64,000 bases of DNA from Cyanophora paradoxa CCMP329. Its lineage: Eukaryota > Plantae > Glaucophyta. This document shows positions 36,401 to 60,053 of this stretch, one piece after another. A program made the translations under genes and the position numbers. A model generated the notes under the pieces. It saw only the letters and a program-made list of their open reading frames with translations, was not told where the DNA came from and did not search any database. The stretch is taken from positions 434,001 to 498,000 of the forward strand of contig QPMI01000010.1 in NCBI GenBank assembly GCA_004431415.1, written 5' to 3'. Position 1 is the stretch's first letter. Each line of letters begins with the position of its first letter.

Positions 36401-39400
36401 ACGACGTGGACTCCATGAAATATTTCTACGTTCCACTTGGAGGGGCCAAAGGAAGGGGCCAGTATATGATATGTGATATCGAAGATGCTCCTACAATGAT
36501 GAGATATAACTGGTGTTTGGATGGGGATGGTTATGCTAAGACAAGTGTAAGGCGAGATGAAGGGAAATGGTTGGTATTGTATGCTCATCGATTGATAATG
36601 ACAAATGAACTGAAAGAAGGGTTGGTTGTCGACCATGTGAGCAGAGATAAATTGGACAACAGGAAGTGTAATCTGAGGGTATGCTATCCTTTTGAGAATA
36701 ATAGGAATAGGAGTAAAAGCAGCAATACAAGCAGTCAATATAAAGGTGTTTCTTTCAAGAAACGAGAGGGTAAATGGTGTGCTCAGATTACAATTAATGA
36801 CAAAAGGCTCTCTTTGGGGTATTACAAAAATGAAGCCTTAGCCGCTCATGCCTACAATCAGGCGGCAATTGAACACTATGGAGACTTTGCCGCTCTCAAT
36901 GAGATTAAGCCCGAGGCACAAAATACCGAATAGAATCAGCATTTAAAGAATAAAATCTTACCTATAGTGTAGAGGAACAAGAATTAAAATGGCATACCAT
37001 GCGGCATCTCAAATTGCCTATGTGACTCGTCGCCGTGCTCAAGATCCTGCTTTCCGTGAGAGAATGAAGCTTAATAGTCTGAGGAGCAGATACTACAAAG
37101 GTGACCCCCTTCCCTGTGTGAGGTACCTCTTTGATGAAAGGAGGTGCCTTGTTGGCAGACCAAGGACAGTGGTGTATTGAGGGGGTCGCGAAAAATTGAT
37201 TGTTTTATTTAATGATTCTATAAACTACTTAAGGACAAGGGTGTCAATAGAATCATCAAATTATTTTCTCACCCTATTATAGAATGGCTCCCTCATTCAG
37301 CTCAATCAACCCCAATGGCAACACCTTCATTCTCACTGAGCGCATCCACAGAGGTAACCTCAAATGGGTGGTGGAGAACTTTGATAATCTCCAGTTTCGC
37401 CCTGAAACTGACAAGACCCAAATGAGAGCCATCATCCAGAAATTACTTTCTATCGTCGATCATGAGGGCTACCACACCTGTAAATATAAGCAGGTGAAGC
37501 ACAACACTGGTAGGTACTTTGTGGATGGAAAAACCCCCAGCCTTCAAAGCATCTGTAGGGAAATTCGCCACACCATTTCCAAGGACTACTACTATGACAT
37601 TGACATTGTGAACTGCCACCCTGTCCTGCTTGTTCAGTATTGTGAGAAACATTCAATTGCCACTCCTCAGCTGAACAAATATGTTCAGAGCAGGGATGAA
37701 ATTCTTGATGATCTCTGTGAGGTCACCCAGAAATCCAAGGCTGATGTCAAGCGCAGCATTCTGGCAGTCATCAATGGTGGGCAAGGGGCTGACCTCTCTA
37801 GCCTACTTATCAATCACAAGTACTTCAGTGATCTCAAAGAGGAAATGGCCAAAGTCCATCAATTCATTGGTGGGATTGAGAAGCAGCGCTTCTATGCTAT
37901 TGCTAAGCGCAAGAAAGAAAGCAATGTACTTGGTTCCACCATGAATATGGTACTATGTGACCTTGAGAATCAGGTGTTAATGGCTGCTTGTGAGTACTTC
38001 AGTGCTCTTAAGCTCCATGTGGATGTCTTGGTCTTTGATGGATGTATGATCAGGAAAGACCCCAAAGTATTGAGTGCTTTGGAAGAGGTTAGTGATTATG
38101 TGGAGGGGAAAACTGGCTACAGGGTGACTTTTGTGGAAAAACCTATGACCAGTGGGTTTGATGTACCTGAATGTCAAGCTTCCCTTTCCAACATTGATTA
38201 CAAGACTGCTCCAATTCCTACCAACTGTGATTACATGGAGATCAAGCCCTACATGGATGCCAGACTTGCTCACATTATGAAGCCTGGGTTTGTCTTGTCT
38301 TGGAATGATCATACCAAGAAGTATGACACAACCAGCTTCAAAAGCTTGGCTGAGGATGTATACCCTCACATTCAGTACACAGAGTTTGACCTAATGTCTA
38401 TGAAGATGGAGCCTCATAACTTCATCAAAAAGTGGGCGAAAGATGAGACTGCCACAAGGTATGATTACTTGGACTTCCTCCCACCTCCTGTAAAATCTGC
38501 TTCCACCACTGCCAAGGTGTTTAATGCCTATGCTGGTATGAAAGGTGAGCTTATGGATGTGAGTGAAATGGATATTCCTCCTGATGTAACTGAGGAAGAT
38601 GTTAGCCCATTCCTTGACCACATGATGATTCTCAGTGGTGAAGATGCTTCTACATTCAATTACATACTGAAGTACTTTGCCCACATTATTCAGAGACCTG
38701 GGGAGTTGAATGGGATTTCAATCATCTTCAAGGGAAAGCAAGGAGTGGGGAAGAACATCATATTGGATTGGTTTCAAAATGAAATACTGGGTGGGGACTT
38801 GGCTTTCAGCACAGCCAACCCACTGAAGGACTTATTTGGAAACTTTGCCCACCAGCGAAAGCACAAACTACTTATCACTGTGAATGAGGCAAGTGGCAAA
38901 GACACCTTCACAAACAGTGATGCCCTCAAGGACATGATCACTGCTGAGAAAATTGTAATTGAGGCTAAGTATGTCAATTCTCATGAGGTGAGGAATTTCG
39001 CCAGGATCATATTTACTACCAACAACACCCTACCAATCAAAGTGGAGGCTGGAGATAGAAGGTTTGTGATTGTGGAGGTGAGTGACAAGAAAAAGGGTGA
39101 CATGAAATATTTCAAGGCACTGGGTAATTGGCTGAAGGAGCCAAGAAACCAGCACATGGTATTCCTCTACTTGAAAAACAAGGTGGATGTCACAGACGTG
39201 AACTGGTATGCTGACAGGCCAATGACCAACAGCTACTACCTTGCCCAACAAGCAAGTGTTCCTGTCACTGCCTTGTTCACCAAGGATTTGGTAGACACCC
39301 AAAAGATTACCAAGGATACACCAAGGACTGAGAACAGGCAACAGGTGTGGGAGTGGTTCCAGCAGTTCATTACAATTAATAAATTCAAGAATGAATTCAG

Positions 39401-42400
39401 CTCAAGGAAGTTCTACATTGAGATGGCTGGACTGGAATATGTGAGGCCTACCAAGTATTGTGGAAGGGAGTGTTATGTCTTCAAGTGGGATGAGATGATG
39501 GCTTACTTCAAGAGCTGTGGGCTGTTGGTGGAGTTTTTGGAAGAGGAGGAGGATTAGGGGGGGCTCATGATAGGTTTTTGGGGGGGGTTCAAGACGTCTG
39601 GGGGACCTTCTGGGGGACCTTCATTTTTTACTTTCTGGTTGTTTTATGACCAGAAATGGTAATAATGTATACACATAGGGGGGTTAGGGGACCTAGGGGG
39701 GGATATATAACTCCTATAGCCTCCAACTCTTTTTCATTTTTAAGCAACAAGCCAGAAATATATAGAGTTGTGAGAGAATACCCCCCTACCCACCCAACAA
39801 CCCCCTAATCCCCCCTAGCCCCCACCTTCCAGACTGAGAATGGTAACCTAAACAACAAGACGTCAGTTGGCAGAACCCCCCCCTAACTTCCCCTTGAGTC
39901 CCCTAACCCCCCCAAATCTACCCCACTTGCTTGTAGGCCACCAGCACTTAAGGACATCTTCATATAGCATGGTGAAGAGCCCAAGCCCCCAAGTGCCCAC
40001 CAAAAATTGATTCTTGACACCCCCAACCCCCCAAACAGTCTTACATAAGCCCACCAGTACCACCATGGACTCAGATAGCAGCTATGATGACATCCCCCTT
40101 GAGGACATGGTTGAACTGTGGGAGGCAGTCAGGCAGCAGTATTATGATGAGTATAGGAAGTCCCCCCAAGACATCAACCCCCAGACCTGTAAAGAATTGC
40201 GCAGATTGATGAAGGCATATGAGAACATCATATGTGATAACTATGGCATGGAGGGGTATGCCCTACTCCACAAAGCAAATTTTAGCTGGAGAAAGTCATG
40301 AAAATTGTAAGTACCCCATCTCAAAATCTCCGATTCATCCCTTGAAAATATCACCGTTGGATTCCTCGTAAAAAGTAGATATTTATAGACCCCAATATCA
40401 TAGCCCTAAGATGATCTGGTGACGAGCTACGAATATTTTCAGGTTCGCATATACCATATATATATACCATAATGATATATGTATATGATATATCATAATG
40501 TCACATGACATATATATATATCATAGCTTTTCGGACTCGCCGCGTCATGGCGATCACGGCGCTATAGGTTTTACCGAAACTTGTTTTTTTTTATATATAT
40601 AATATACATATATGAGCCGGCCTACCGTTGACCAGTATACGTAGTCACGCCAGCCAGCCTACCGTAGACCAGTAGGCACGCCAGCCAGCCTACCGTAGAC
40701 CAGTAGGCACGCCAGCCAGCCTACCGTAGACCAGTAGGCACGCCAGCCAGCCTACCGTAGACCAGTAGGCACGCCAGCCAGCCTACCGTAGACCAGTAGG
40801 CACGCCAGCCGGCCTACCGTAGACCAGTAGGCAAGCCCGCCAGCCTACCAGAGAGCGGTAGGCGCTTATTTCCTTATAGAACTCTATAAGAACATTTATA
40901 TTCCATTTAATTGGAGCCACCTAAGAAGCTCATATAATTAAATCGTATAAGACCATATAAGATTTTGGATAAGATTTATATAATCTATTACACTTCTATG
41001 TGAGCGACAATAAGGAGTCTAATAAGGATGGGTTAAATGTGGCGACTCTTGAAAGATTTCTTATAAGAACCTTATAGAGATTGCGCGGCGCAATCTAGAA
41101 GTTGCGCACAGTATGGGCTGCGCAAGCCTGAGATTGCTCCTTGTATGGCCGCGCAACGCTGAGATTGCTCCTTGTATGGCCGCGCAACGCTGAGATTGCT
41201 CCTTGTATGGCCGCGCAACGCTGAGATTGCGCAGCTATTTCCTTATAGAGCTCTATAAGAATGTTTCTAAAACTTTCAATTAGAGCCACTTAAGGAACTT
41301 CAAACGCGAATATCTCGGCACCAGATTGGCCGTTTTGAGCGCTCTTTTTTTTCCTGTGAAGCTCTCATCACGCTCTACGCAGAGCCGCCCCTTTCGCATT
41401 TTTATGCTGCCTAAAAGTAGATTATTATGACAACTCCCATCCATACTCGCCTTGTAGAGGTCTCCTTTGAACTCTCATATTTGGCGCTGACGTCTCCAAG
41501 CTCAGAACTGAGTAACTCCATACATCGCCTCTCTATAGAACTGTACAACCTTGGTCATCGAATAGCCCCCCTGTCTCCACATATCAAAGCAGCTTTACAA
41601 AAAATATCAAACGACCTTCTAATGCTTGGAAACGAGATAAATACCCTCCCTGATGGCAGATAATGTGCTCAATGTAGACGGTTTCCTTGGTACTCATCCC
41701 AAGCGCTGCTTACAGCCTGAGCAAATTGCTCCCCTGTCACCTCTTCAATACTCTCCAAGCTTACCCTTTGCCCCTCAGTTGACCCTGTCCTCAGCACCAC
41801 ATCATAGGGAGACCCACTCCTGGATCCACTTGGGGAGGAAGATCCAATGCTGACGTCAATAGTAGTATCACAACAGCTACATTTATAATTGCTGGTCACA
41901 TGTATATGAAACATATCCAGCAATTGTTGGAGCCATTGCCACATCTTACAAGTAACAGGACAAAATAACTCAGTTGCTGCTCTCAGTGGTTAAAAAGTAT
42001 TTAGCCGGCCTCCCCATTGGCCTCACCACTTCTTTTTGTGCCCTTCGGCGATAATATGATGCCAAGGCTTGTTGTTTCTTAACCTCTCTATATGCTGGGT
42101 CTTCCCTGTATCTTTTTTGGTTTGCTAAAGCGCTCTTAATATAACTCTCACTTACAGGACTATCAACGGTGAACTCAACCAGACTGATGGTATCATCCAT
42201 TTATAATAGAAAAAACGTTTATTTTTTCTCAAAGCCAAACCCGTCGTTTATACACTGTGGGGGCTACGCCTTTGTCCACCTCTGCCTTTGTAGCACCTGG
42301 CTCAATAGTCCCCTTTTGGGTCTTTGTTTTCATTTCATCAACAGCTTGCTCATCGATTTGGGTCTCTTTCTTGGCAATAAACTGTTTATCTGGAATCCCA

Positions 42401-45400
42401 GTTATCCCCATTTTGAACACCTCCTTTCTAAGCATCTCCTTGAGTTTGGACCTCTCTCTCTTCTCAGTTACATACTGCTCCAAAGCACTTGACTTGGCTT
42501 CCAGATCTTTAAGCTTGGCAGTCATTTCGTCCCATTGAGCCTTGGGAACTCTATGAATATTCTGGGTGGGAGCAGTCTTGTATGTGACTTCACCCGCCAT
42601 AGACTGGATAACCTTGTCGGATTCTTTACTGAGACCCTCACCTTTGCGAGTGAGTGATAGATCTTGGAGCCCAAGACCTTTATCATCAGCAGCACCTATA
42701 ATTCGCCTGGCACCCTCACCCACAGCCTTCATTTTAGAAGCTTCAGGGGAGATGTTGAGCTGATCACTGGTGGACGTCTGTGGGGCTTTGTCATCAAAAG
42801 ATTCCTCATAGGCGGCATTAAGGGGATCCTCTTGCTGTTGTGAGGGCTTAACCTCATTCATTCCATTGAATTTAAGCGGGTCTGTGTTAATGGAGCCATT
42901 GTTACCACCACCTGAATACCCAACAGCCCCAGCAGGGATGCCTATTTTCCGTTTGGGGGGCATTGTGTCTTTATTAAAGTGAGAGATATTTTTATAGACC
43001 GCGTTTATATCGCATTAACTTACTACTATGAACTTGGCTTTTCACTTCTTTGCGCCCCTCTTCTTTCTCTGGTGGTTTAAGCTCATCTTCTTTCTTCTTT
43101 GGCTTCCTGTGGAACCGTGGAAATGGGAAATCTTTGACCAAATCCGCTTTATCTACGAAATATTTCACAGAATAATCTGCGGATGACCAAATTAGGAACT
43201 GGTAGGAATGTACGTACTCTTCAAACATTTTATAGAAAACATCTTTGTCCCGCATTATATTGTATTCTTCCTCAATGGCTTCAAGCTCCTTTCTATTGGC
43301 AGCGCTGAGGAACATAGCATAATCTGAGTTGACGCGAATGGTCGATGAGACTTTCCTTAGCTTTTGTGTGATACAGATAATAGATATTTTCGAATGTCTA
43401 CCACGACTGTAAAGACTTCCGATTATTTTATCTCGGGTCAAATCTACTATTTCGTTGTCAATAAGGTCGTCCAAAACAACACATAATTGGTTAACAGGTT
43501 CCCCTTTTTCTATTTTCTCTTGCCTTTCATCCAGCAATTTAGCAATGTAAGGGGCGTCCCATTTCCCCAATTGTAATGTGGCCACCTTATCCCAGAAATG
43601 ATTAAAGCTTGTTCCACTCACCACCAAAACGACATCAATCTTTTTGGCATCATGAAGCTGCTTGAGCCAGTACTTTACAGCCTCTGATTTACCAGTAGCA
43701 GATTTGCCAATTGCCAAAACGCGGAAAGGGGGATTTATCATCTCACCAGCATTAAATTCGTCCAAGTCGCCCATGCTTCCTTCTATAAAGAACCAGATAA
43801 AAATAATACGATGTGACTGAATATGGTTTATAGATTGATTCGCCTCAAGCCGTCCTTGTCCACAATAATGAAACTATGCATGAGAGCGCGAACATTGACA
43901 TCAATTGCCTTGTCAGTGGGCATGTAGAGAGTGAGGAATGAAGATGAAGAATTGGTCAGGTCAACATAGCCAGACTGGGCAACATTGCGAATAGCCTTCT
44001 CACCATCAAGACAGAATGGCAGCCCTGAAAGAACATAGCGATCAGCAACCTTATCCATGTTAGAGCATTTGAAGACATCAGCAATCAGCTCAGCACCCTT
44101 GAGCAGTGGAATGGGCTCAGTGGCATAGAGACGTTGACCATTAATTTCCACAGTGAAAGTAATATCTTTGGAGTTGGAGTAGGTCTTAAGTACACTGTGG
44201 GAACCATTAGCTTTGTCAACATTAGCGTTATCACGAACTGAAACAAGCAGAGCATAAACGAGACCTGATATTTGGGAGAGGTTAACTCGATTGGGTTGGG
44301 CAAGACCCTTGGCTTTCATATCACTGACATCCACAAATCCAATATCCAGAGCAGGGATAGCCATGCCAGTTGTCTTTACCTTCTCAATAACAGTAGCGAA
44401 AAGCTCATCAGACACATTAACAGCATACATATAAAGGCGAGGAGAAGTAATTTTAATTTCAACGTTTGGCGCACCAAGATTGAAAGTGGTGATGTTTTGG
44501 CCAACATGTGCCAGCACAGATTCAGCAGGTGCGACGCCAAGCCCATCATCCTTGTCCCCATCAATGGCTGTGTCCCCAGCCTTAGGAAGAGTACGACCAC
44601 CATAAGAAGTCTCAACATAACCCTTCCCTACATCCTTGAACCAAACAGTTACTACCATTTCACCAGACAGAGCACCAAGAGGTAGGTAGTGGTTTAGCCA
44701 AGGCACAGGAATTTCAACAAAGAATGAGCCACCAAGTCGGTTGGTTCCATGGGCGGGGATGCCGTGAAGCATGCCCATTGATCGCTTCTTTTTGGCAAGC
44801 TGATCCTCACTATAATAGACAAGAGGGAAATGAGCAAGGAAATCAGAAGGGATATGGTAGGTGTATGACCCATAGGTAATTTCAAGTCGCTGAACCAAAG
44901 CACCAACTGGGCGAGTATACCCATTTCGAACAAGATCAGCATCACCAAAAGTGATAGCTGGAAGGTCGAAGGCAAGTTCGAGTTTGCCACAGAAATTGTA
45001 GCGAGGGAGTTTGAATGAAATGCGATTTCCAACACTATTTTCAAAAGTATTGCTCGGGTTCACAACAACAAGAACGGGCTTCGACTTGGATTCAAGACCA
45101 AGCATTAGGGAGTTATCCAGAAAGAAGGCCTTGGCCTCCTCTGGGGTTGTTAGGGCTTCTTTCAACGAAAGGCGCTGGAGGGTCGACGTAATATCCATGA
45201 TTTTCTCTTTTATTATACTGTAACATAAAAAAATTACGAATGAACCTTGTGTTTACCCAAAACTCGCAATGATTGGATATGTTGGATGACTTTGTGACAT
45301 CCGCATCTTAAAGTATTCATAGACAGGGTCGCCTGCTGGCTCCTCCCCATATCGAATTTCAAATGTGAGGTGGACAGGTTGACCCTCAAAATCGATTGGT

Positions 45401-48400
45401 TCGTTTATAGCATTTACTATATCCACAGAGAATGTAGACAAACCCATTTTTTTGTTATAGTACTTGTAAAGTGGGTGAGATTCTGTTGAATTGTAAACCA
45501 CATGCTCACCGTAGTCCTTGTCAGGAACTACTATTTTATGGAAGTAACCAGTCAGGAGACCATCCCCACACTGAACCAGATCACCCAACTCTTTTACTCT
45601 GACAAATAAAACACTGTCCCTGGTCTTTTCAGGCTCAAACGAAGATATAATACCATTCACCCGTTCACCAGTAAAGATGCCATCAGTAAGAGCATTATAA
45701 ACCTGTGATTGGATTGGGGAATTTCCATATCTTCCGGGATCAAGACCAAGCAATCGGGCAGCGCTCAGTAACTTTTGGATCGTTTTCTGGTTTGGATTTC
45801 CAGCAACAGAGAAGGCTAGATAGAAAGGTTTCTCTGAGTGGAATATAATTCGTTTTAGTGACTCATCCCATTTACAGCGAATAGATGGTTCCGGCTCTCT
45901 ATCATCGAATTTCGCATTAATTACATTTACCAATTGCTGGTGGCTTTGAATGGGTTTTTTGCGGCTTATTATTAATTGCTTCCAAGGTTCAAAGCCGGCC
46001 GCTGGTCGAGTAGTTGGAATGCCATCAATGCCAGCACCATCGAATTCTTCACTCCAAAAAATGCTGAATGAATTATCAATTGTAATATCCCCTGGTTGCG
46101 TTTCACCACTCACCATAGGGATACTATTATAAAATTCGGCCGAGACCAGCCTGACAGCCCTCACATTCTCATATATGTTTGGAAGTCGAGCTATAAAGCT
46201 TGAAGTAGGACCGTCACCAGAGATTGTATTAAAAGAGCTCACCTCAATGTAGTCCACGGGCATTCTCCTTTTATCTATATTCATATATTAAAATGAACCG
46301 GCTTGTCAATGTTGATAGCAGGGATCGCAGCCAAGGTGAAACCGAAAACTCTTACAGGGTTGCCCTCACAACACCAGTAGAGAGACCTCGAGAGTGTAGG
46401 GTTATTTACGCAGAAATTCCAAACAGCATTTACAATAGTGTGGGAACAGATCATTTAATAGTGGAATTCACCTATCAGGATAGTTCTGTCACTGAAACAG
46501 TAACTTACAACATTTCCCCCCTGCCAACCGGTTATATCAATCAGGGACATTTTGGGGTCACCCAACCATACAACTATGGATTGAACTATGTGTTCTATGA
46601 GGAAACTATAGCAGGAAAAACAGTTGCTTTCGAATTCAAATTATTTTACAATCCAACCACTTATAAAGTGGAGTTCTACAGTAACAGATTTTTCCGTATA
46701 AGAGCAAGCAATAAGCGTATTGGTAAGCTTCTGGGGTTAAGCTCAACTGAGTTCCAGTCTTCATTTATGGATGACAATTCGCCCTCTCAATCTCCATATC
46801 GCCCTGAGAATTTTCTAAAGTATGATGGCAAACCTATCACACTCAATCACCCCTTGTGGGGAACTACCTTTTCGGGATCCAGACTTTCATCCACACCTCT
46901 TAGATATGTTTATTACAGCAATAAGATGGCAGACATGAACGCTGAGCAGTACCTTTATTTACATGTCAAAGAACTTGCTCCCTTTGCCAGCAGACATAAT
47001 ATAGTCCCAAAATCACAGCCACAAAACCAAGGCGCCATACTGAGACTCCAATTAAGCAAGGATATAGGAGGCTATGTTTACTATAATGGTGAACATGGGG
47101 AGTTTATTCGAATTAATGACCGACATCTGGTGGTGAGAGAACTAACAGTTGAGTTCAAAGACTACTTTGGTGACATCATTGACATGAATGGAATTGACAA
47201 TTCTTTTCAGCTCGAGTTTATCGAATAAACGCACCTGTAAAATCGACTCTCATTGTGGGAGCATTCACATAGACAAGGGGATAAATGCGAACATATTTGA
47301 TTCTCAAAGAGAACCCTACGTAGAAAGCATCCTTGATGGTGAGAGGGTAACCATTTAATAAAGCTATATCGCCGGAATTATTAGCATTGTTTATATTCTC
47401 ACAAACAAATGTTTTGTTCTGCCCTTCTGCTCGAATAAAAGACCAGTTGATCCCATTAGTTGATGTAGCCACATTGAAAGTCTTTATAAAAGCATTGGTG
47501 TCCCCTGACCCATAGGCAACCACTGAAGAGAGTTCAAAAGTGTATGGGAAAGCAACTTGAAGGTACTCAGTGGGGGTCTCCCATATCTGCTCTGGAGCAA
47601 ATGCCCCAGCTTCCCAGCCAAATGATGAAGGTCGAGCCATGTGGGGCTCTTTACCTATCACAGAGGAGGAGGCAGTAAAAGCATCATCAGCAAGTTTGTA
47701 CCAATTAGCATCCAAAGGTGGTGACAGGGTGAGAGTGGAAGAGATATAAGCTTTTGATGGGTTCTTTAATTCATAGTTTGCTACCAGCAAATCGCAAAGC
47801 TTATTAATCATGGTGTTGTTTGCTGCTATGTATGTCTCAGTGAACGAAAGCATGTCGGGGATTTTAGAGGTATCATCAAGGGACTTGACTATGTGATTTG
47901 GAAGAGGAACAGATAGCCTATAGTACCTCCCATAATCCTGATCGTAGTTGTAAGGCAGCAACTCCTCCATCTTGTCAAGAGCTGACAGCTCACTTGCTGC
48001 CATGAGCATGTTAATCAATGGGCTTCCATCTGTTGAGGCAATCCATGAGAGAATGCCCAACTGTTCACAGTCTCATAACCATAGCCGAAATAATCAGACT
48101 CTAAATATGGGTCTACCTCACCACAAGAGATGCTTATAACTATAATGTCATCATCATCACTGTAAATCTTCCTCGCATGGCTATAGCCACACACACTTGG
48201 GTTATTGTTTCCTGAAATAGCACCATCAATAAGGCAAGCAGTTACCCCTCGATTAAAATCAACTATACTCACAGGAGAAAAGTAGGTGGGAGCAGCAGAG
48301 GTAGCCCTTGCTGCTATTTTACAGGGCAGAAAGTTATAGTTGTTATCATTTGTGATAAATATAGGTTTCATGTACTGAGTATCAAACGAAGTAATCACAA

Positions 48401-57400: not shown

Positions 57401-60053
57401 ATGGTTTAAGGGTTGGTGGAATTATTGGAGCGCCTTTATTAGTAAATGATCAACCCAATCCAGATGATGTGAATACAAGAATCAGGACATATGTCCCGGG
57501 AATGAATGAGCCTTACATTATCAAAATCAACACAATCATTATCAACCTCACCGTCGGCAACGCCGACTGCAAGAACTCGTGCGCGACAATTTTGCATTCC
57601 TGATTTAATGTGAATTTCACACATAGGGATACCCCTGATCCAAGCCTGTAGAAATCACTATAGATATACTGAGACGTTGCCTGCTGATATTTACGCATTA
57701 TGTAGAAGAACAGATGGAGCAAGACCCCGTATTACTGTCCAAGTAGTCCCAGTAGATAATTTCGGACTTGCTTTCCATTCACTGCCACTTCTTGACACAC
57801 AAGATGACCAATATATTATAAGAGCTACCCAGCAAGGGGCTTACACAGTGATTATGTATGCTGAAAGGAATGATGAAATTGCCAGAGGAAATAGATTTGG
57901 TCAATATCTAACCACAAATTTATACAATCCCATTGGAGGAAGTGATCCTTTGCCTTAAATCTCCAGCAATCGTATTGTTTTTTCTATTCTATTGGTAATC
58001 AAAATGCTTGCCAAAGGTTACCATGTGATGCTTGATTTCCAATTCAGCCAACCAATTAGAGACCATGTGGAGCTCTCTAAATGGCTCATGAATGTCAGTG
58101 AAGACATCATCAAGAAATATGGAATACAGGTTGTCCACAAACATGCTGAGATTTTTGATGGCACTAAATCACCCCCTGGATTCGCTCAGGTATTATTATT
58201 GGATGAAAGCCATTGCTCTGCTCATTGCTACAGTGATCAAGGCATGTTGGCAATAGATATATTCAGCTGTGGAAAACAGGCAGAAAGGAATACAAGTTTA
58301 ATTGCTTTTGAGCTGGAGGAGGAGATAAACAAATATGCTATTGGTTTTGGGGCAGTGATCAAAAAGAGATTACACCACGAGAAGAGGAGGTTTGAGGTTT
58401 AAGAGAGGGTGTTGAGGGTGTTGAGAGTGTTGAGGGTTATATGTAAAAATTCCCGTGACAGAGAATTTTCCTAAGAAAGTTTACAAACAACCCTCAACAC
58501 CCTCAACACCCTCAACACCCCCTGCTGGTGCCGAAAAGACATATTTAATACCCTAAGACCTAAAATAGATGCTTACTACCCTAGTGCTTAAAACGCGCAC
58601 ACATAGGGATACCCCTGATCCAAGCCTGTAGGCCGAAGGCCGGAGGGCTTGGATCAGGGGTATCCCTATGTGTGAAATTCACATTAAATCAGGAATGCAA
58701 AATTGTCGCGCACGAGTTCTTGCAGTCGGCGTTGCCGACGGTGATCATCGAGTCGTCGAACTTGTCCTTGTCGGAGCGGCCGTTGTTGAGCGTGTCAAGG
58801 AGGCTCTTGCGCTCCTTGTTCGGGTTGAACGAGTGCTTCCAATCTTTGCACTGCGCATGCCAAATTAAATTTGAAGACTTCAGCCTCTCACGGTTCGGCG
58901 GTCTCATTTTAGTTTATTTAAAAACGAGCATGAGTGTTCTAAATTAAATTTGATTCGACCGTAATAGTGATCATCATCATCATCGGATGTAATAAAATAT
59001 TCTATCAAGACGCATACCTTGCTCTCGGTGTCGAAGCTCGTGGAGACGGTGGTGGACTGCTCGGTCACGTTCGACTGCACGGCCACCGAAGACTGCGGGC
59101 CGCTGACGCCGGCCGACATCGCCGAGTCCGGCGTGGCGGCAGCGGCGGTCGCGTTCGAGTTCGAGTTCGACGCCGGAGCGGCCGCGGGGGTCGGCGTCGG
59201 CGCCGCGGCGGCCGCGGCCGCGGGGCTCGGCGTGGCGCCTGCTGACGTCGACGATGTCGAATTCGAAGTCGAGGGCGGCGCCGAGCTCGAGGGAGAGGGC
59301 GTCGGCGAAGGCGTCGAGGCACTGGCTGCTGCGGCCTGCGGAGTCGGAGTCGCAGCCGCGGCTTCCGGGACAGCGCTCGGGCTCGGAGATGCGCTCGGGC
59401 TGGGGCTCGGCGAGGCGCTCGGGCTGGGGCTCGGAGATGCGCTGGGGCTTGGGCTGGGGGTGGGACTGGGCGAAGGCGTAGACGTCGGCCCGGCGGGCAG
59501 AATGAAATTGCTCGTATTCTTCCCCGTGTTAGCGCCGTTTGATGCAATAGTGGTGCCAGTTACATCCCGGTAGGCCGTCGACACGCAGCTGATGTTGAAT
59601 TCCTGCGTGTAAGGCCCAGATATGTTCTGCGCATGCGTCCCAAAATAACGTTAGAATAGCCAGTCCTGTATACGTACGTATACATCGTGTACGTAGGGAT
59701 CTTCTCACCACAGTTGTGGTCGTGCTTCCGATTTGGATACACGAACCCGTCTGAGCCACGACGACGAGGCCGGAGTCGTATGGCCCTGCAGGATCTTTGA
59801 CCCCCGTCGGGCTGGAAACGCTGCAGACAGTCTTCACGCTGCAGGCTTTGGATTCCGGGTTGGTGTTGTCAGCCCCCTGCCACGAGACCGTGAGAACGAT
59901 GGCGCTGTATGTCAGGGCCGTCGCCGTCTGGCTCACTGCGTACGCCAAGCGATGATGATCATGAGCTCGCGAATTCGGAGCTCGCATAATATATAAGCTT
60001 GAGGCCTTGAGAAAGAGTGTGCGGGCGGTGGCCAACGCACCTGTCGTGCCCAT
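30454..60053 (-). CDS. Host Ser/Pro/Thr/Ala-rich putative cell-surface (possibly GPI-anchored) protein; one intron (31312-58713) carries the viral element
   Basis: Exons at approx. 60053-60041, 59935-59710, 59620-59018, 58851-58714, 31311-31161, 31087-30893 and 30783-30454. The checked joins are in frame (...ADCKNS|RKAARRLLATTG..., GLLD|VEGALY). (SP)n stalk, RRLL motif, hydrophobic C-terminus GAMNILGPVAGLLASLLVARRA*. Confidence 0.75.
31376..31450. repeat. Left terminal inverted repeat, itself a hairpin (28-bp perfect stem, 19-nt asymmetric loop)
   Basis: ACACATAGGGATACCCCTGATCCAAGCC - CTCCGGCCTTCGGCCTACA - GGCTTGGATCAGGGGTATCCCTATGTGT. Confidence 0.97.
31581..31780. repeat. Left subterminal stem-loop (23-bp stem, 31581-31603/31637-31659) running into 9-10-bp tandem repeats (CCGTTCACC, CCTTTACAC, AATCTTAAC)
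   Basis: Read directly from the sequence. Confidence 0.85.
31871..33157 (-). CDS. Retroviral-type (rve, DDE) integrase of the Polinton/Maverick kind
   Basis: FAIDLVFF (D), IQSDAGSEF (D), SQGRIEAFNRTIK (E), YNNTIHSATGMKP; consistent with the 6-bp TSD. Confidence 0.95.
   Translation of the reverse strand: MSSKITRRQTEYDVSILPIPIPQEERGGRIQKKSDLKALVPADIPTAIAVPHLDPLARTFYDTKVGFKGLASLAKELPDVPRKTIRRFYDAQEINQINKPLPSAKKTAYIPIRQPLDTFAIDLVFFPSYSKQNQGYNTFLTAVENTTRLGFIIPMRGKTAESTLNAFKELEQQVPRPIVKIQSDAGSEFLNKVFKDHLETQMIEHQVSQVGDHNSQGRIEAFNRTIKKLINSYCIANNTVKFFDKLQDFAYNYNNTIHSATGMKPAETTEVHVPLILGKENEKFMKSIEYLKDYPAGSHVRTKIEKSPFAKQGNNWSREIFTIEGVEGFKFKLRDISGKLIDRLYAHYELQKVETVEFLEAPSINVIEEAKKEARTERLLAREGIERAPNVPDKPLLEDRAGKKKKQGRELERLRVAGTERLAGEQRQ
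33169..36264 (-). CDS. polB: Protein-primed family B DNA polymerase (~1031 aa, probable start MPRPSHY at 36264) with C2H2 finger and endonuclease-VII-like Zn insert
   Basis: Motif A YLDANNLYGYA, motif B KIMNNSLFGK, motif C FTDTDS, RPKCYS, KLAGV; N-terminal NKDNRCFEYSIL; FCKTCSNHFKTEEKLQSH; CYIC...RDHDHQTG...ACRKCN. Confidence 0.95.
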   Translation of the reverse strand: MPRPSHYQIKELQDKILGNLAFLLANHSISESEYESYISQTNKKLKGLQALNRELLGKIDALDETDRLGHIQVEQTTTTQVRGEDYTALINEHRALNNKYIDFTIRAQHQILTTQEFIDTYSEELHTRLQDAINSQMSIKTRFTFVCRFSKANNSRDFITKHIYSTYAIMTRSRILTKETAKLAKECQSQINVTDSYRLDSIQALRVIVLSFKPISGGAFIPLPEWLKNKRAIVNVNNKDNRCFEYSILSYIHKDEVNSHKRNETSQYRRWFKKELNFEGIEFPVKADADTIDLFENLNPAISVNIYDPSNSTEEINLLHNSSSRNRKHQVDLLLITDENGNSHYTTIFSMSRVLAKNDKQRLHFCKTCSNHFKTEEKLQSHIQSKRCVDWKTSAGETPKQPTFIEFGLKHLSKTVFLPVIAYCYFDYETDISGMFKIKSISLTALHNNRVVLTKTHSNIFELLSTLDSTAPELFKALFTNIPMSLTKEQKRTHYLAKTCYICEGTFSQDNYKVRDHDHQTGDFVGSACRKCNLHRRTSNLTKIPIVTNDLSLSGTQIFKAVALNPEKRVEVLAKSFDNYMSITWGCFKFIDIKNFIDYGVQNVEGLMEKFQLFRQKSHKTFGMDAAHYVSSPGLSWDSMLSITKPKIELLSNLDMYNMVEGMIRGGLSIMNHKYAKKERDSHIIYLDANNLYGYALSQKLPLSNFQWHPEPSNYDLSSAEGAILEVDIHYPQHLHQLHKELPLVIKRAEDGLQAACEDICNYVVSKPLLQFMVAQGLKVTKIHRVLTFTQAAFMKPYVESNAQNRKAAPSKPEKDFFKIMNNSLFGKTIEKVRGRSNVKIATNEKQFMKYARSPLLKAETRLSDSAVAFEMLQKNVKLDKPIAIGAVVLDLAKLRLFDYYYNTIKRKWPDCKLLFTDTDSLCLQINSKTIAKDLQDIDTHPTELGKFKDEFEGRTIIEYAGVRPKCYSIKTDDEEIKKLAGVCKETIQTDLSFQDYKDHVLHQKPKQIEMTVQKKLENETFNVKMSKIAF
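36361..36933 (+). CDS. HNH-AP2 homing endonuclease
   Basis: AHRLIM...VVDHVSRDKLDNRKCNLR...ENNRN (HNH) followed by SQYKGVSF...KWCAQI...LGYY...AAHAYNQAAIEHYGDFAALN (AP2). Confidence 0.93.
   Translation: METFDQDLVETKFDDVDSMKYFYVPLGGAKGRGQYMICDIEDAPTMMRYNWCLDGDGYAKTSVRRDEGKWLVLYAHRLIMTNELKEGLVVDHVSRDKLDNRKCNLRVCYPFENNRNRSKSSNTSSQYKGVSFKKREGKWCAQITINDKRLSLGYYKNEALAAHAYNQAAIEHYGDFAALNEIKPEAQNTE
36989..37180 (+). CDS. Small basic protein (63 aa), probable DNA binder; paralog of 41970-42200
   Basis: ATG in A-rich context; DPAFRE...SRYY...GRPR resembles DPAYRE...ASYY...GRPAK. Confidence 0.6.
   Translation: MAYHAASQIAYVTRRRAQDPAFRERMKLNSLRSRYYKGDPLPCVRYLFDERRCLVGRPRTVVY
37192..37199 (+). promoter_or_regulatory. 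AAAATTGA octamer (mimivirus-type early promoter motif) upstream of the primase-helicase
   Basis: Exact motif in the intergenic region, ~85 bp before ATG 37284. Confidence 0.55.
37284..39557 (+). CDS. Primase-helicase: PolA-like primase-polymerase (TVpol) fused to D5-like superfamily-3 helicase
   Basis: N-terminal YDIDIVNCHP / KRSILAVINGG / VLVFDGCMI (PolA motifs A/B/C-like); C-terminal Walker A GKQGVGKN, Walker B LITVNEA, motif C IIFTTNN, DRRF. Confidence 0.88.
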   Translation: MAPSFSSINPNGNTFILTERIHRGNLKWVVENFDNLQFRPETDKTQMRAIIQKLLSIVDHEGYHTCKYKQVKHNTGRYFVDGKTPSLQSICREIRHTISKDYYYDIDIVNCHPVLLVQYCEKHSIATPQLNKYVQSRDEILDDLCEVTQKSKADVKRSILAVINGGQGADLSSLLINHKYFSDLKEEMAKVHQFIGGIEKQRFYAIAKRKKESNVLGSTMNMVLCDLENQVLMAACEYFSALKLHVDVLVFDGCMIRKDPKVLSALEEVSDYVEGKTGYRVTFVEKPMTSGFDVPECQASLSNIDYKTAPIPTNCDYMEIKPYMDARLAHIMKPGFVLSWNDHTKKYDTTSFKSLAEDVYPHIQYTEFDLMSMKMEPHNFIKKWAKDETATRYDYLDFLPPPVKSASTTAKVFNAYAGMKGELMDVSEMDIPPDVTEEDVSPFLDHMMILSGEDASTFNYILKYFAHIIQRPGELNGISIIFKGKQGVGKNIILDWFQNEILGGDLAFSTANPLKDLFGNFAHQRKHKLLITVNEASGKDTFTNSDALKDMITAEKIVIEAKYVNSHEVRNFARIIFTTNNTLPIKVEAGDRRFVIVEVSDKKKGDMKYFKALGNWLKEPRNQHMVFLYLKNKVDVTDVNWYADRPMTNSYYLAQQASVPVTALFTKDLVDTQKITKDTPRTENRQQVWEWFQQFITINKFKNEFSSRKFYIEMAGLEYVRPTKYCGRECYVFKWDEMMAYFKSCGLLVEFLEEEED
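40003..40010 (+). promoter_or_regulatory. Second AAAATTGA octamer, upstream of small ORF 40065-40301
   Basis: Exact motif ~55 bp before an ATG in CACCATGG context. Confidence 0.5.
40065..40301 (+). CDS. Hypothetical viral protein (78 aa)
   Basis: ATG in good context, codon style like the upstream helicase, helical acidic/aromatic sequence MDSDSSYDDIPLEDMVELWEAV... Confidence 0.6.
   Translation: MDSDSSYDDIPLEDMVELWEAVRQQYYDEYRKSPQDINPQTCKELRRLMKAYENIICDNYGMEGYALLHKANFSWRKS
40649..40865. repeat. Tandem array A: 7 x 31 bp (GCCAGCCAGCCTACCGTAGACCAGTAGGCAC), each unit with a GCCTAC/GTAGGC stem
   Basis: Five perfect units, two diverged units, plus a partial unit at ~40616. Confidence 0.95.
41128..41230. 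repeat. Tandem array B: 3.3 x 31 bp (CTGAGATTGCTCCTTGTATGGCCGCGCAACG)
   Basis: Three perfect units and a partial unit. Confidence 0.95.
41427..41663 (+). CDS. Hypothetical helical protein (78 aa)
   Basis: ATG ORF with an internal helical repeat (SFELSYL / SIELYNL / SNDLLML); abuts the convergent ORF. Confidence 0.45.
   Translation: MTTPIHTRLVEVSFELSYLALTSPSSELSNSIHRLSIELYNLGHRIAPLSPHIKAALQKISNDLLMLGNEINTLPDGR
41669..41944 (-). CDS. Hypothetical viral protein (91 aa) with CSCC motif
   Basis: ATG ORF at the end of the minus-strand structural block, short AT-rich spacer upstream. Confidence 0.55.
   Translation of the reverse strand: MWQWLQQLLDMFHIHVTSNYKCSCCDTTIDVSIGSSSPSGSRSGSPYDVVLRTGSTEGQRVSLESIEEVTGEQFAQAVSSAWDEYQGNRLH
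41970..42200 (-). CDS. Small basic protein (76 aa) with GRP (AT-hook-like) motif
   Basis: Lys/Arg-rich; similar to 36989-37180. Confidence 0.65.
   Translation of the reverse strand: MDDTISLVEFTVDSPVSESYIKSALANQKRYREDPAYREVKKQQALASYYRRRAQKEVVRPMGRPAKYFLTTESSN
42229..42963 (-). CDS. Hypothetical protein (244 aa), coiled-coil, N-terminal PPKRK (NLS-like); possible virion core protein
   Basis: Long ATG ORF co-oriented directly downstream of the ATPase. Confidence 0.75.
   Translation of the reverse strand: MPPKRKIGIPAGAVGYSGGGNNGSINTDPLKFNGMNEVKPSQQQEDPLNAAYEESFDDKAPQTSTSDQLNISPEASKMKAVGEGARRIIGAADDKGLGLQDLSLTRKGEGLSKESDKVIQSMAGEVTYKTAPTQNIHRVPKAQWDEMTAKLKDLEAKSSALEQYVTEKRERSKLKEMLRKEVFKMGITGIPDKQFIAKKETQIDEQAVDEMKTKTQKGTIEPGATKAEVDKGVAPTVYKRRVWL
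42992..43774 (-). CDS. A32-like (FtsK/HerA) genome packaging ATPase
   Basis: PFRVLAIGKSATGKS (Walker A), LCVVLDDL (Walker B), RGRHSKISIICITQ, IRVNSDY. Confidence 0.95.
   Translation of the reverse strand: MGDLDEFNAGEMINPPFRVLAIGKSATGKSEAVKYWLKQLHDAKKIDVVLVVSGTSFNHFWDKVATLQLGKWDAPYIAKLLDERQEKIEKGEPVNQLCVVLDDLIDNEIVDLTRDKIIGSLYSRGRHSKISIICITQKLRKVSSTIRVNSDYAMFLSAANRKELEAIEEEYNIMRDKDVFYKMFEEYVHSYQFLIWSSADYSVKYFVDKADLVKDFPFPRFHRKPKKKEDELKPPEKEEGRKEVKSQVHSSKLMRYKRGL
43828..45198 (-). CDS. Double jelly-roll major capsid protein (456 aa)
   Basis: Size, beta-rich pattern, motifs GNRISFKLPR...LAFDLPA, LVQRLEITYG, IPVPW...LPLGAL, VEINGQRL, SGYVDL; lies between ATPase and penton. Confidence 0.85.
   Translation of the reverse strand: MDITSTLQRLSLKEALTTPEEAKAFFLDNSLMLGLESKSKPVLVVVNPSNTFENSVGNRISFKLPRYNFCGKLELAFDLPAITFGDADLVRNGYTRPVGALVQRLEITYGSYTYHIPSDFLAHFPLVYYSEDQLAKKKRSMGMLHGIPAHGTNRLGGSFFVEIPVPWLNHYLPLGALSGEMVVTVWFKDVGKGYVETSYGGRTLPKAGDTAIDGDKDDGLGVAPAESVLAHVGQNITTFNLGAPNVEIKITSPRLYMYAVNVSDELFATVIEKVKTTGMAIPALDIGFVDVSDMKAKGLAQPNRVNLSQISGLVYALLVSVRDNANVDKANGSHSVLKTYSNSKDITFTVEINGQRLYATEPIPLLKGAELIADVFKCSNMDKVADRYVLSGLPFCLDGEKAIRNVAQSGYVDLTNSSSSFLTLYMPTDKAIDVNVRALMHSFIIVDKDGLRRINL
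45253..46284 (-). CDS. Minor capsid protein (penton) 1
   Basis: IEVSS...SSFIARLPNIYENVRAVRLVSAEFYNS N-terminus; LFVRVKEL; LSTFSVDIVNAINEPIDFEG..VHLTFEI C-terminus. Confidence 0.82.
   Translation of the reverse strand: MNIDKRRMPVDYIEVSSFNTISGDGPTSSFIARLPNIYENVRAVRLVSAEFYNSIPMVSGETQPGDITIDNSFSIFWSEEFDGAGIDGIPTTRPAAGFEPWKQLIISRKKPIQSHQQLVNVINAKFDDREPEPSIRCKWDESLKRIIFHSEKPFYLAFSVAGNPNQKTIQKLLSAARLLGLDPGRYGNSPIQSQVYNALTDGIFTGERVNGIISSFEPEKTRDSVLFVRVKELGDLVQCGDGLLTGYFHKIVVPDKDYGEHVVYNSTESHPLYKYYNKKMGLSTFSVDIVNAINEPIDFEGQPVHLTFEIRYGEEPAGDPVYEYFKMRMSQSHPTYPIIASFG
46293..47228 (+). CDS. Minor capsid protein (penton) 2
   Basis: VNVDSRDR...SYRVAL...VIYAEIPNS N-terminus; YLYLHVKEL; LTVEFKDYFGDIIDMNGIDNSFQLEF C-terminus. 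Confidence 0.85.
   Translation: MNRLVNVDSRDRSQGETENSYRVALTTPVERPRECRVIYAEIPNSIYNSVGTDHLIVEFTYQDSSVTETVTYNISPLPTGYINQGHFGVTQPYNYGLNYVFYEETIAGKTVAFEFKLFYNPTTYKVEFYSNRFFRIRASNKRIGKLLGLSSTEFQSSFMDDNSPSQSPYRPENFLKYDGKPITLNHPLWGTTFSGSRLSSTPLRYVYYSNKMADMNAEQYLYLHVKELAPFASRHNIVPKSQPQNQGAILRLQLSKDIGGYVYYNGEHGEFIRINDRHLVVRELTVEFKDYFGDIIDMNGIDNSFQLEFIE
47218..48773 (-). CDS. Patatin-like phospholipase fused to F5/8 type C (discoidin) domain, split by a 1-nt frameshift near 48056-48058 (~518 aa if repaired)
   Basis: LSGGGARG, GTSTG, ARATSAAPTYF, IDGA. The patatin C-terminal part (WGILSW...PLINMLM, YYRL, LDDTS) continues in the second frame, then AFTASS...EYLQVAF...STNGINW...KYVRIYP...MRVDFTG. Confidence 0.85.
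48817..56141 (+). CDS. Giant fibre/adhesin-like protein (ORFs 48817-52395 + 52392-56141; ~2441 aa if one gene) with four LamG/ConA-like modules, HxH repeats, 13/26-aa shaft repeats and a phage-fibre-type C-terminal domain
   Basis: Four YLP(L/K/I)(T/S)GGTIT motifs, each preceding a module that ends like E...(F/Y)(N/T)RAL...E....R.YL..KYG. The second module straddles the ORF junction. C-terminus F..KPPV...IHWTAYG. Confidence 0.75.
53118..53740 (+). repeat. Coding tandem repeats: ~6 x 39 bp (PLTSSNVVQEWIA) then ~5 x 78 bp (PKADTETVNSQIALLTSSNTVQGWLI)
   Basis: Visible at both DNA and protein level. Confidence 0.9.
56181..57026 (+). CDS. Putative fibre-associated structural protein (281 aa), paralog A
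   Basis: Intact ORF; shares GLESTE, RVKELRADKNSGVVKTTQLLVTNANF and GYRNDE with the next gene. Confidence 0.75.
   Translation: MGEYNRVQLPVYALGSPAIHFRQHEVSDEIRGLESTERANSGNAFDKNSMIRVKELRADKNSGVVKTTQLLVTNANFQSANGQPDAYGVDIKAFEFDNTRAAAVIRSGGAIIGGGCRVSGMLGSSAAFNDFPDTLPEHADNPQRIRMFLPCGDSPYAFGIIRANVNTQNATQPQGIAGPWKLANQLLPKAIYSMCRSQNGGLEGYTFFVQAVGHGGRGWITRNPATQPNSFDFWASEVGGYDILIFGYRNDEAAWAVANCINPDSQVSNFYNEPFPNDPIP
57046..57958 (+). pseudogene. Paralog B, interrupted by a ~104-bp insertion at 57548-57651
   Basis: The 5' ORF matches the N-half of paralog A. After the insertion, LPADIYALCR...TVQVV...YAERNDE...DPLP matches the C-half of paralog A in a shifted frame. Confidence 0.85.
57548..57651 (-). repeat. 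Inverted copy of the right virus-host junction (71 bp host flank 58674-58744 + 28-bp terminal arm + TGTAG)
   Basis: 57548-57646 is the exact reverse complement of 58646-58744. Confidence 0.95.
58004..58402 (+). CDS. speD: S-adenosylmethionine decarboxylase proenzyme family (short prokaryotic-type, pyruvoyl-dependent), 132 aa
   Basis: GYHVMLDF, F...PPGFAQVLLLDESHCSAHCY (E|SH self-cleavage site), AIDIFSCG. Confidence 0.88.
   Translation: MLAKGYHVMLDFQFSQPIRDHVELSKWLMNVSEDIIKKYGIQVVHKHAEIFDGTKSPPGFAQVLLLDESHCSAHCYSDQGMLAIDIFSCGKQAERNTSLIAFELEEEINKYAIGFGAVIKKRLHHEKRRFEV
58407..58520. repeat. Right subterminal stem-loop (41-bp stem built from GAGGGTGTT 9-mers, 3 mismatches)
   Basis: 58407-58447 is complementary to 58480-58520; the loop matches the left subterminal loop. 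Confidence 0.85.
58599..58673. repeat. Right terminal inverted repeat/hairpin
   Basis: Exact reverse complement of 31376-31450. Imperfect TIR similarity continues inward (31451-~31525 vs ~58524-58598), then patchily to ~31660/58407. Confidence 0.97.

Follow-up and report, generated by a model that had tools for sequence, protein, structure and literature searches.

An integrated virus-like element in the genome of Cyanophora paradoxa carries a small self-cleaving decarboxylase of the SpeD family, whose predicted reaction is the conversion of arginine to agmatine rather than the decarboxylation of S-adenosylmethionine (SAM). The gene and the putative processing site of its product are located as follows in the window, the whole 64-kb stretch of DNA that we analysed:

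58004..58402, forward strand: SpeD-family pyruvoyl proenzyme, predicted arginine decarboxylase (SpeDA-like), from Pfam, AF2/Foldseek and tree placement
58205..58210, forward strand: predicted self-cleavage site, codons Glu68-Ser69, aligned to T. maritima Glu62-Ser63

The open reading frame (ORF) begins with the ATG at 58004, ends with the last base of its stop codon at 58402 and encodes 132 amino acids. The protein matches PF02675 (Pfam AdoMet_dc) with an E-value of 1e-11 and 45.6 bits, exceeding the Pfam cut-off of 25 bits. It contains the motifs LLDESHCSAH (residues 64-74) and DIFSCG (residues 85-90), and alignment with the S-adenosylmethionine decarboxylase (AdoMetDC) of T. maritima pairs Ser63, His68 and Cys83 of that enzyme with Ser69, His74 and Cys89 of the element protein, so that the residues for processing and for catalysis have all been retained. 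Judged from the sequence, Ser69 would become the pyruvoyl group after self-cleavage of the proenzyme, and the Glu68-Ser69 columns are invariant in all 18 aligned sequences. The AF2 model has a pLDDT of 95.4 and finds its best Foldseek matches in the PDB with 1vr7, 1tmi, 1tlu and 2iii (TM 0.68-0.79); the fold is predicted with high confidence to be class 1b AdoMetDC-like. Coordinates, Pfam match, ESH and DIFSCG motifs and fold all agree with the intact SpeD-family proenzyme described in the initial annotation.

Three observations bear on the substrate. Alignment with the T. maritima enzyme shows that the element protein is missing the proline of HTWPE, which is typical of true AdoMetDCs (Li et al. 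2023). Its score against TIGR03330, the NCBI equivalog for AdoMetDC, is 50.0 bits, under the cut-off of 75.65 bits. In the phylogenetic tree, four phage SpeD proteins, including three assayed AdoMetDCs, branch apart (98/93) from the element protein, which is nested within a family with the signature "SPPGF…LDESH.SAHCY". Arginine decarboxylase activity has been shown for family members from Planctomycetota, Marine Group II archaea and stramenopiles (Li et al. 2023), in keeping with the earlier remark that some SpeD-family members use arginine. The tree places the element protein with the family whose assayed members decarboxylate arginine and not with the phage AdoMetDCs. Given the absent proline, the sub-cut-off score and the position in the tree, we do not favour a SAM decarboxylase, nor the associated proposal that the enzyme either makes decarboxylated SAM or dampens methylation by draining SAM.

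The element has the following boundaries:

31376..58673: the 27,298-bp integrated element, virus-like and low in GC, from GC content, terminal inverted repeats (TIRs) and target-site duplication
31370..31375: target-site duplication GAAATT, 6 bp, left copy, read from the sequence
31376..31524: left TIR arm, the first 76 nt forming a palindrome, from repeat analysis
58525..58673: right TIR arm, with the 76-nt palindrome at its end, from repeat analysis
58674..58679: target-site duplication GAAATT, 6 bp, right copy, read from the sequence

The two arms pair over 149 nt with 95% identity. GC content is 0.38-0.47 within the element, whereas it is 0.58-0.76 outside; the surroundings are GC-rich eukaryotic DNA and the element resembles an integrated algal-type virus. 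A small integrating virus had been proposed as the carrier of the gene, and its position inside a TIR-bounded, integrated virus-like element supports this. Further genes and gene candidates of the element are:

31871..33157, reverse strand: integrase candidate (rve core), Pfam rve E 9.9e-6, 26.2 bits, below the 32.6-bit cut-off
37284..39557, forward strand: D5/VapE-like primase-helicase, DUF5906 72.2 bits, VapE-like 33.8 bits
42992..43774, reverse strand: A32-type packaging ATPase, Pox_A32 42.3 bits, above the 22.8-bit cut-off
43828..45198, reverse strand: major capsid protein candidate, 456 aa, from its nearest ESM Atlas clusters

The clusters nearest to the 456-aa ORF are viral and contain Capsid_N/Capsid_NCLDV (score 0.98), which we treat only as a lead to its identity as the major capsid protein. 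A domain scan of 27 element ORFs (17 plus 10 small ones) detected no spermidine synthase domain, and the element shows no SpeE partner for the decarboxylase, as had been noted.

The SpeD-family gene is, as initially annotated, the last one before the right TIR: its stop codon (58402) is followed by subterminal repeats (58404-58523) and then by the TIR arm. Its base composition matches that of the element, and other genomes of the same organism hold a diverged copy that differs mostly at synonymous sites. Two features lie upstream:

57549..57650: 102-nt insertion breaking ORF 57046-57958, from a repeat match and comparison with other contigs
57979..57987, forward strand: promoter-like motif TTTTTCTAT, 16 nt before the ATG of the SpeD-family gene

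The motif occurs in four exact copies within the window, three of which are in sense orientation 5-20 nt upstream of ORF starts (o76, o281 and the SpeD-family gene). The insertion consists of right flank plus terminal hairpin arm, copied inverted (repeat of 99 nt, 100%). Contigs of three other runs have 35 different letters in its place and therefore an open frame of 281 codons.

The gene had been considered unusual for Polinton-like viruses (PLVs). We found no description of the arginine-decarboxylase-like SpeD family in PLVs in the literature, but this view is only half borne out: IMG/VR has the family on 20 contigs, including four that belong to a single small PLV-like lineage (L171/L002, L186, L172 and L001), and among its giant-virus MAG contigs many hold family members. 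The family is not unique to the C. paradoxa element. In the tree, the sister clade of the element protein is found on giant-virus contigs, and with its nearest relatives there, this already known enzyme family has a new host in the element.

The ORF at 58004–58402 scores 45.6 bits against the Pfam family AdoMet_dc (PF02675; gathering cut-off, 25), and sequence searches with its 132-residue product, the window protein, retrieve the S-adenosylmethionine decarboxylase (AdoMetDC) structures of T. maritima and A. aeolicus. The AF2 model of the window protein has a pLDDT of 95.4 and adopts the class 1b α/β sandwich; its nearest PDB neighbours in Foldseek are 1vr7, 1tlu and 2iii (E ~1e-7, TM 0.68–0.79). 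In the alignment with the T. maritima enzyme, the processing residue Ser63 and the catalytic residues His68 and Cys83 correspond to Ser69, His74 and Cys89. All three columns are invariant in an alignment of 18 sequences (A1), which has 24 invariant columns in total, including SPPGF, LDESH, AHCY and CG, and the homologs share the family signature SPPGF…LDESH.SAHCY…G…D.F.CG…RF. Because the AdoMetDC profile match, the fold and Ser69, His74 and Cys89 are all present, the window protein looks catalytically competent. Judged from its sequence, it would cleave itself at Glu68/Ser69, producing a 68-residue and a 64-residue chain. The gene is real and intact, and it is conserved. One homolog from the representative library, P0110, is 328 aa long and carries two tandem decarboxylase domains, each of which matches the family profile (E ~1e-40).

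Class 1b AdoMetDCs (T. maritima, 1TLU/1VR7; A. aeolicus, 2III; TIGR03330) share with the window protein the fold, at the TM values quoted, a similar length and a Glu-Ser site accompanied by His and Cys. The window protein differs from them in the motif HTWPE, for which it has HCYSD: Trp-Pro-Glu of T. maritima is replaced by Tyr-Ser-Asp, and Pro71 aligns with Ser77, so that the AdoMetDC proline is absent. It also differs in its score against the AdoMetDC equivalog model TIGR03330, which at 50.0 bits lies below the cut-off of 75.65, and in standing apart from the phage AdoMetDCs in the tree. The assayed SpeD of phage S-PM2, run as a control, reaches 133.1 bits, and a Planctomycetota member of the family, P0059, lies narrowly above the cut-off with 76.9 bits. 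The proline of HTWPE is described as fully conserved in bona fide AdoMetDC and as not conserved in SpeDA, the AdoMetDC-derived pyruvoyl arginine decarboxylase (ADC) (Li et al. 2023, PMC10407285). Judged by its sequence, the assayed AdoMetDC of phage phiYS40 likewise lacks this proline, and its loss is therefore not decisive.

Phylogeny, one of the checks that the initial annotation had proposed, sets the family apart from phage SpeD and gives the window protein a sister clade on giant-virus contigs. The maximum-likelihood tree holds 87 rows out of 346 domain sequences; key rows were kept and the remainder was thinned at 62% identity. The whole family is split from four phage SpeD proteins with a support of 98/93. 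Three of these (S-PM2, P2559S and phiYS40) are reported as assayed AdoMetDCs (PMC9992855), and the fourth, S-SRM01, is an AdoMetDC by annotation only. A named Planctomycetota branch is basal, a Marine Group II group is the neighbour, and the window protein is nested between them. It forms a pair with P0001, a 66% identical protein from an 800-nt metagenome contig (100/99), and the pair is sister to an 11-row clade (96/91) whose members are 45–64% identical to the window protein and include the proteins of contigs L005, L006 and L009.

These three contigs encode an NCLDV major capsid protein, D5 primase, Erv1/Alr, RNase III, thioredoxin and a GH46 enzyme, and are giant-virus DNA. Their GC content is unusually high (57–62%), and the GH46 protein encoded on L009 is chitosanase-like. 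Among matches in prokaryotic genomes, the best 80 of 365 all come from Poseidoniales-type archaeal MAGs (38–55% identity), and named Planctomycetota proteins are ~40–44% identical to the window protein. A gene for SpeY, a deoxyhypusine-synthase-like protein, lies within 1.5 kb of the homolog at 62 of 72 metagenome loci and 60 of 65 genome loci; for a SpeB-like gene, the corresponding counts are 8/72 and 17/65. SpeY is described as condensing agmatine that is supplied by arginine decarboxylase (PMC13625781).

A single well-supported SpeDA clade has been reported that unites Gimesia maris (Planctomycetota), Solirubrobacter, Marine Group II/Poseidoniales archaea and the algae Nannochloropsis and Tribonema; the assayed members from Gimesia, MGII/Poseidoniales, Solirubrobacter, Nannochloropsis and Tribonema are all given as arginine-specific, and all three members tested for it (3/3) failed to complement an E. 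coli speD mutant (Li et al. 2023, PMC10407285). The window protein shares with this clade the fold, the processing residues, the signature SPPGF…LDESH.SAHCY…CG and the lack of the AdoMetDC proline, and its nearest cellular relatives are Poseidoniales homologs adjoining speY. It differs in being encoded by an integrated eukaryotic virus-like element, in having no speY or speB partner, in forming a clade of its own with giant-virus homologs, and in that its activity is a predicted one. The connection to ADC runs through named relatives from the same taxa: the assayed SpeDA, SpeDC and cellular SpeD proteins lie outside the tree, and the substrate assignment thus rests on these same-taxon relatives. 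We conclude that the window protein, an intact proenzyme of the class 1b AdoMetDC fold, is probably a self-cleaving pyruvoyl-dependent L-arginine decarboxylase of the SpeDA type, and that its product would be agmatine and not decarboxylated SAM (dcSAM). Arginine is the substrate predicted from relatives assayed by others.

A true AdoMetDC, which would supply the host's spermidine synthase with dcSAM or reduce the amount of SAM, is an unlikely alternative reading of the same protein. The Pfam AdoMet_dc fold and the catalytic triad would suit such an enzyme, the assayed class 1b homologs of giant viruses and phages include real AdoMetDCs (PMC9992855), and the phiYS40 AdoMetDC, too, does without the proline. 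Against these points stand the TIGR03330 score below the cut-off, the change from Trp-Pro-Glu to Tyr-Ser-Asp, the 98/93 split from the phage AdoMetDCs, the nesting of the window protein among relatives of enzymes reported as assayed ADCs (Li et al. 2023, PMC10407285) and the lack of SpeE in the element. A domain scan of the 27 element ORFs reveals no spermidine synthase (SpeE), as the initial annotation had noted, and its description of an intact AdoMetDC/SpeD-type proenzyme encoded by the last gene before the right terminal inverted repeat (TIR) stands on the PF02675 score, the fold and Ser69, His74 and Cys89. Its suggestion that the enzyme decarboxylates SAM, however, is not favoured by the equivalog score (50.0 versus 75.65 bits), the missing proline and the separation from the phage AdoMetDCs.

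Slightly less likely still is a pyruvoyl enzyme that is active as a decarboxylase but whose substrate is something else, for example ornithine, lysine or a different amino acid. Several substrate changes are reported within the family (Li et al. 2023, PMC10407285), and a long branch separates the viral clade from the assayed enzymes; yet all ODC forms are described as a clade of their own, marked by four diagnostic residues (Li et al. 2023, PMC10407285), and the active-site stretch of the window protein is almost identical to that of its archaeal and planctomycete relatives in A1.

The gene would be expressed together with the viral genes, and if the window protein is an arginine decarboxylase, enzymes of the host or of a helper virus would channel its agmatine into polyamine synthesis while the virus replicates. 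Agmatinase, agmatine deiminase, SpeY and HSS are not encoded in the element, and on the giant-virus contigs examined no agmatine-using or other polyamine gene lies in the ~10 kb around the homologs.

The element that carries the gene is visible as an island with a GC content of ~0.38–0.47 at roughly 31.4–58.9 kb in a window that otherwise ranges from 0.58 to 0.76. It ends in TIRs of 149 nt (31376–31524 and 58525–58673; 95% complementary), and the hexamer GAAATT stands directly outside both ends (31370–31375 and 58674–58679). We read this hexamer as a 6-bp target-site duplication (TSD); the element therefore spans 31376–58673 (27,298 bp) and arrived by integrase-type insertion. The outermost parts of the TIRs (31376–31451 and 58598–58673) are 76-nt palindromes with 28-nt arms and a loop of 19–20 nt, whose orientation is opposite between the two ends, so that hairpin-capable ends are flanked by the GAAATT duplication. 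Subterminal arrays of 9-nt repeats lie at 31573–31763 (CCCGTTCAC and CCCTTTACA types) and 58404–58523 (CCCTCAACA type), and each array forms a local inverted repeat. The following element features were assigned:

Element ORF: rve-like integrase (Pfam, 26.2 bits, under the 32.6-bit cut-off)
Element ORF: D5/VapE-like primase-helicase (DUF5906, 72 bits)
Element ORF: A32-type packaging ATPase (Pox_A32, 42.3 bits; cut-off, 22.8)
Element ORF: patatin phospholipase (Pfam scan)
36310–36933, plus strand: HNH-AP2 endonuclease (Pfam scan)
48817–56141: two proteins of ~1,200 aa; both contain repeat units, and the second has a weak LamG-like domain
58004–58402, plus strand: SpeD-family ORF of 132 aa, followed by the right subterminal repeats and TIR with no further ORF

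The HNH-AP2 ORF is bracketed by a 30-nt inverted repeat (36286–36315 and 36937–36966, 83%) and overlaps the start of a 1,189-aa ORF on the opposite strand, and for these two reasons it looks like an inserted homing-endonuclease cassette. The two adjacent ~1,200-aa proteins are probably fibre or attachment proteins. In the second of them, PLTSSNVVQEWIA-type units form direct repeats of 39 and 78 nt, and related units recur in both proteins; the second also has duplicated C-terminal halves. Tandem arrays of a 31-nt repeat (40610–40888 and 41116–41230) lie within ~2 kb (39.6–41.6 kb) that contain no ORF of 100 aa or more; this region may be an origin or a regulatory region.

A 456-aa ORF adjoining the ATPase is a candidate for the double jelly-roll major capsid protein. 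The ESM Atlas clusters closest to it are viral throughout and carry NCLDV-type capsid families with a score of 0.98, which we treat as a lead only. The protein has no Pfam match, its AF2 model, built from two sequences, has a pLDDT of 36.9, and it has one homolog (58% identical, from a eukaryote protein set) in 5.8 billion proteins and none in IMG/VR. Neither a protein-primed polymerase nor a protease was recognised in the element. Judged by its gene content, the element appears to be Polinton-like virus (PLV)-like, with a candidate capsid protein. Like PLVs and virophage-like elements (Preplasmiviricota), it has TIRs and a 6-bp TSD and encodes an rve-like integrase, a D5-like primase-helicase, an A32 ATPase and a candidate capsid-like protein, and it resembles them as a 27-kb element present at a far higher contig depth than its flank. 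It departs from them in the single homolog of its capsid candidate, in the lack of a recognised protein-primed polymerase or protease and in its 76-nt palindromic termini.

The decarboxylase gene has a GC content of 0.41 and a GC3 of 0.43, whereas GC3 is 0.27–0.54 in the other element genes and 0.69–0.79 in the flanking host ORFs. Its composition is the element's own, and a recent capture, whether from the host or from the GC-rich giant viruses, can therefore be discounted. Sixteen other element proteins have no tblastn match in the first 84 homolog loci.

Most of the region is contained in 19 DNA runs of one organism. In three of them (X1, X2 and X6), a 397-nt contig spanning 57999–58395 is 97.5% identical to the window and aligns gap-free, with 10 differences. 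The depth of this contig is 650–1,355, compared to 25–102 for the host flank contig; depth does not equal copy number, and the difference points to a multi-copy or episomal element family. The right flank (58675–58907) holds a minus-strand ORF of 72 aa (GC3 0.79), whose end lies 15 nt away from the element. Contig depth in X1 is high on this flank as well (407–1,377), and given this deep right flank the insertion site may itself be repeated DNA.

Nine of the 10 differences are listed, and six of these are synonymous, including all five in codons 54–66, the active-site stretch (pN/pS between copies ~0.12; binomial P 0.002). Differences between copies of the neighbouring ORFs likewise fall mostly in third positions. 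The motif TTTTTCTAT stands 16 nt 5′ of the decarboxylase ATG. It has four exact copies in the window, and in three cases an ORF begins 5–20 nt downstream in the same orientation; when up to one mismatch is allowed, the element holds 13 copies, and 6 of the 13 occupy such positions, again in sense. This distribution is no more than a hint that the decarboxylase gene may share its type of promoter with other element genes. Contigs from four runs presumed to be RNA do not cover the gene, which speaks neither for nor against its expression.

The copy in the window has been rearranged next to the decarboxylase gene. The ORFs at 56181–57026 and 57046–57958 are tandem paralogs of 281 aa with no family match, and the first is preceded by TTTTTCTAT. 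Inside the second, 102 nt are an inverted copy of the right host flank and the terminal hairpin arm and break the ORF; a perfect 99-nt inverted repeat connects 57548–57646 with 58646–58744. Contigs from three other runs have 35 other letters at the insertion site, which gives an open frame of 281 codons, the same length as the paralog. Since the inserted piece contains the flank of this very locus, the rearrangement post-dates integration. It leaves the decarboxylase gene untouched. The least probable reading is that the gene is carried along silently, or that it is a decaying or non-catalytic remnant within an endogenous element that is itself dead. This reading can draw on the broken neighbouring gene in the window copy, but sits poorly with the intact frame, the retention of every catalytic residue, the mostly synonymous divergence between copies, the base composition adapted to the element and the gene's own promoter-like motif.

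A second scan of IMG/VR found family members on 20 contigs. At least 10 of these are giant-virus contigs by name or content, and four (L171/L002, L186, L172 and L001) belong to one small PLV-like lineage. Two contigs of this lineage (18.9 and 20.1 kb) are syntenic with 73–77% nucleotide identity; they encode a primase-helicase, the decarboxylase and an A32 ATPase, as well as a protein of 450 aa that has Preplasmiviricota capsid clusters among its Atlas neighbours. A family member is also present on L188, which looks like a phage, and on L003, a phage contig from the first IMG/VR scan. Phage records gave just five weak matches (25–34% identity) among 50,697. The viral homologs in IMG/VR form another subclade and are 34–40% identical to the window protein. 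Comparison of the window element with the small lineage gave a profile probability of 0.15 for the capsid candidates and weak pairwise BLASTP matches (capsid, E 0.002; ATPase, E 9e-6); by these two methods, no homology between the capsid candidates of the two small-virus lineages was demonstrable.

In the initial annotation, the gene was considered untypical of PLVs. This stands with respect to the literature, in which we found no description of this family in PLVs or virophages, but is weakened by the small PLV-like lineage in IMG/VR that holds the family. The decarboxylase described in one PLV-related paper is a phosphatidylserine decarboxylase located on contigs with giant-virus hallmark genes, and the auxiliary genes listed in the main text of a 2026 preprint on 2,355 marine PLVs include no decarboxylase or polyamine gene. 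Polyamine genes reported from other viruses comprise class 1b AdoMetDC in Heterosigma akashiwo virus and Yellowstone Lake phycodnavirus 2, SpeDA in pelagiphage HTVC201P and a PLP-dependent ADC in chloroviruses (Li et al., PNAS 2023, PMC9992855). The window gene shares with these a virus-borne decarboxylase at the entry to polyamine synthesis and a prokaryote-type enzyme in a virus of eukaryotes, and differs in its carrier, a 27-kb integrating PLV-like element instead of a giant virus or phage. As the decarboxylase family recurs in viruses of eukaryotes, the window element represents a new carrier and not a new kind of enzyme.

Virus replication needs polyamines, and giant viruses and phages are known to carry polyamine enzymes of their own. 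With the nearest relatives of the window protein on giant-virus contigs and a second small PLV-like lineage carrying the family, this theme of viral polyamine genes is extended to Preplasmiviricota. Most likely, the decarboxylase gene encodes a SpeDA-type ADC, is borne by an integrated PLV-like element and has its closest kin in giant viruses. The database label "S-adenosylmethionine decarboxylase" is then probably wrong for this family in eukaryotic viruses. More tentatively, pyruvoyl ADC may be common to giant viruses and neighbouring small PLV-like viruses, and may here serve as an active auxiliary gene in a multi-copy family of endogenous PLVs, by which a 27-kb virus could reprogramme the arginine/agmatine metabolism of an algal-type host or of a co-infecting giant virus. 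If true, this would be the first metabolic enzyme of the polyamine pathway shown in Preplasmiviricota. The presence of this SpeD-ADC branch in a small integrating element also points to an exchange of genes between giant viruses and their small companion viruses.
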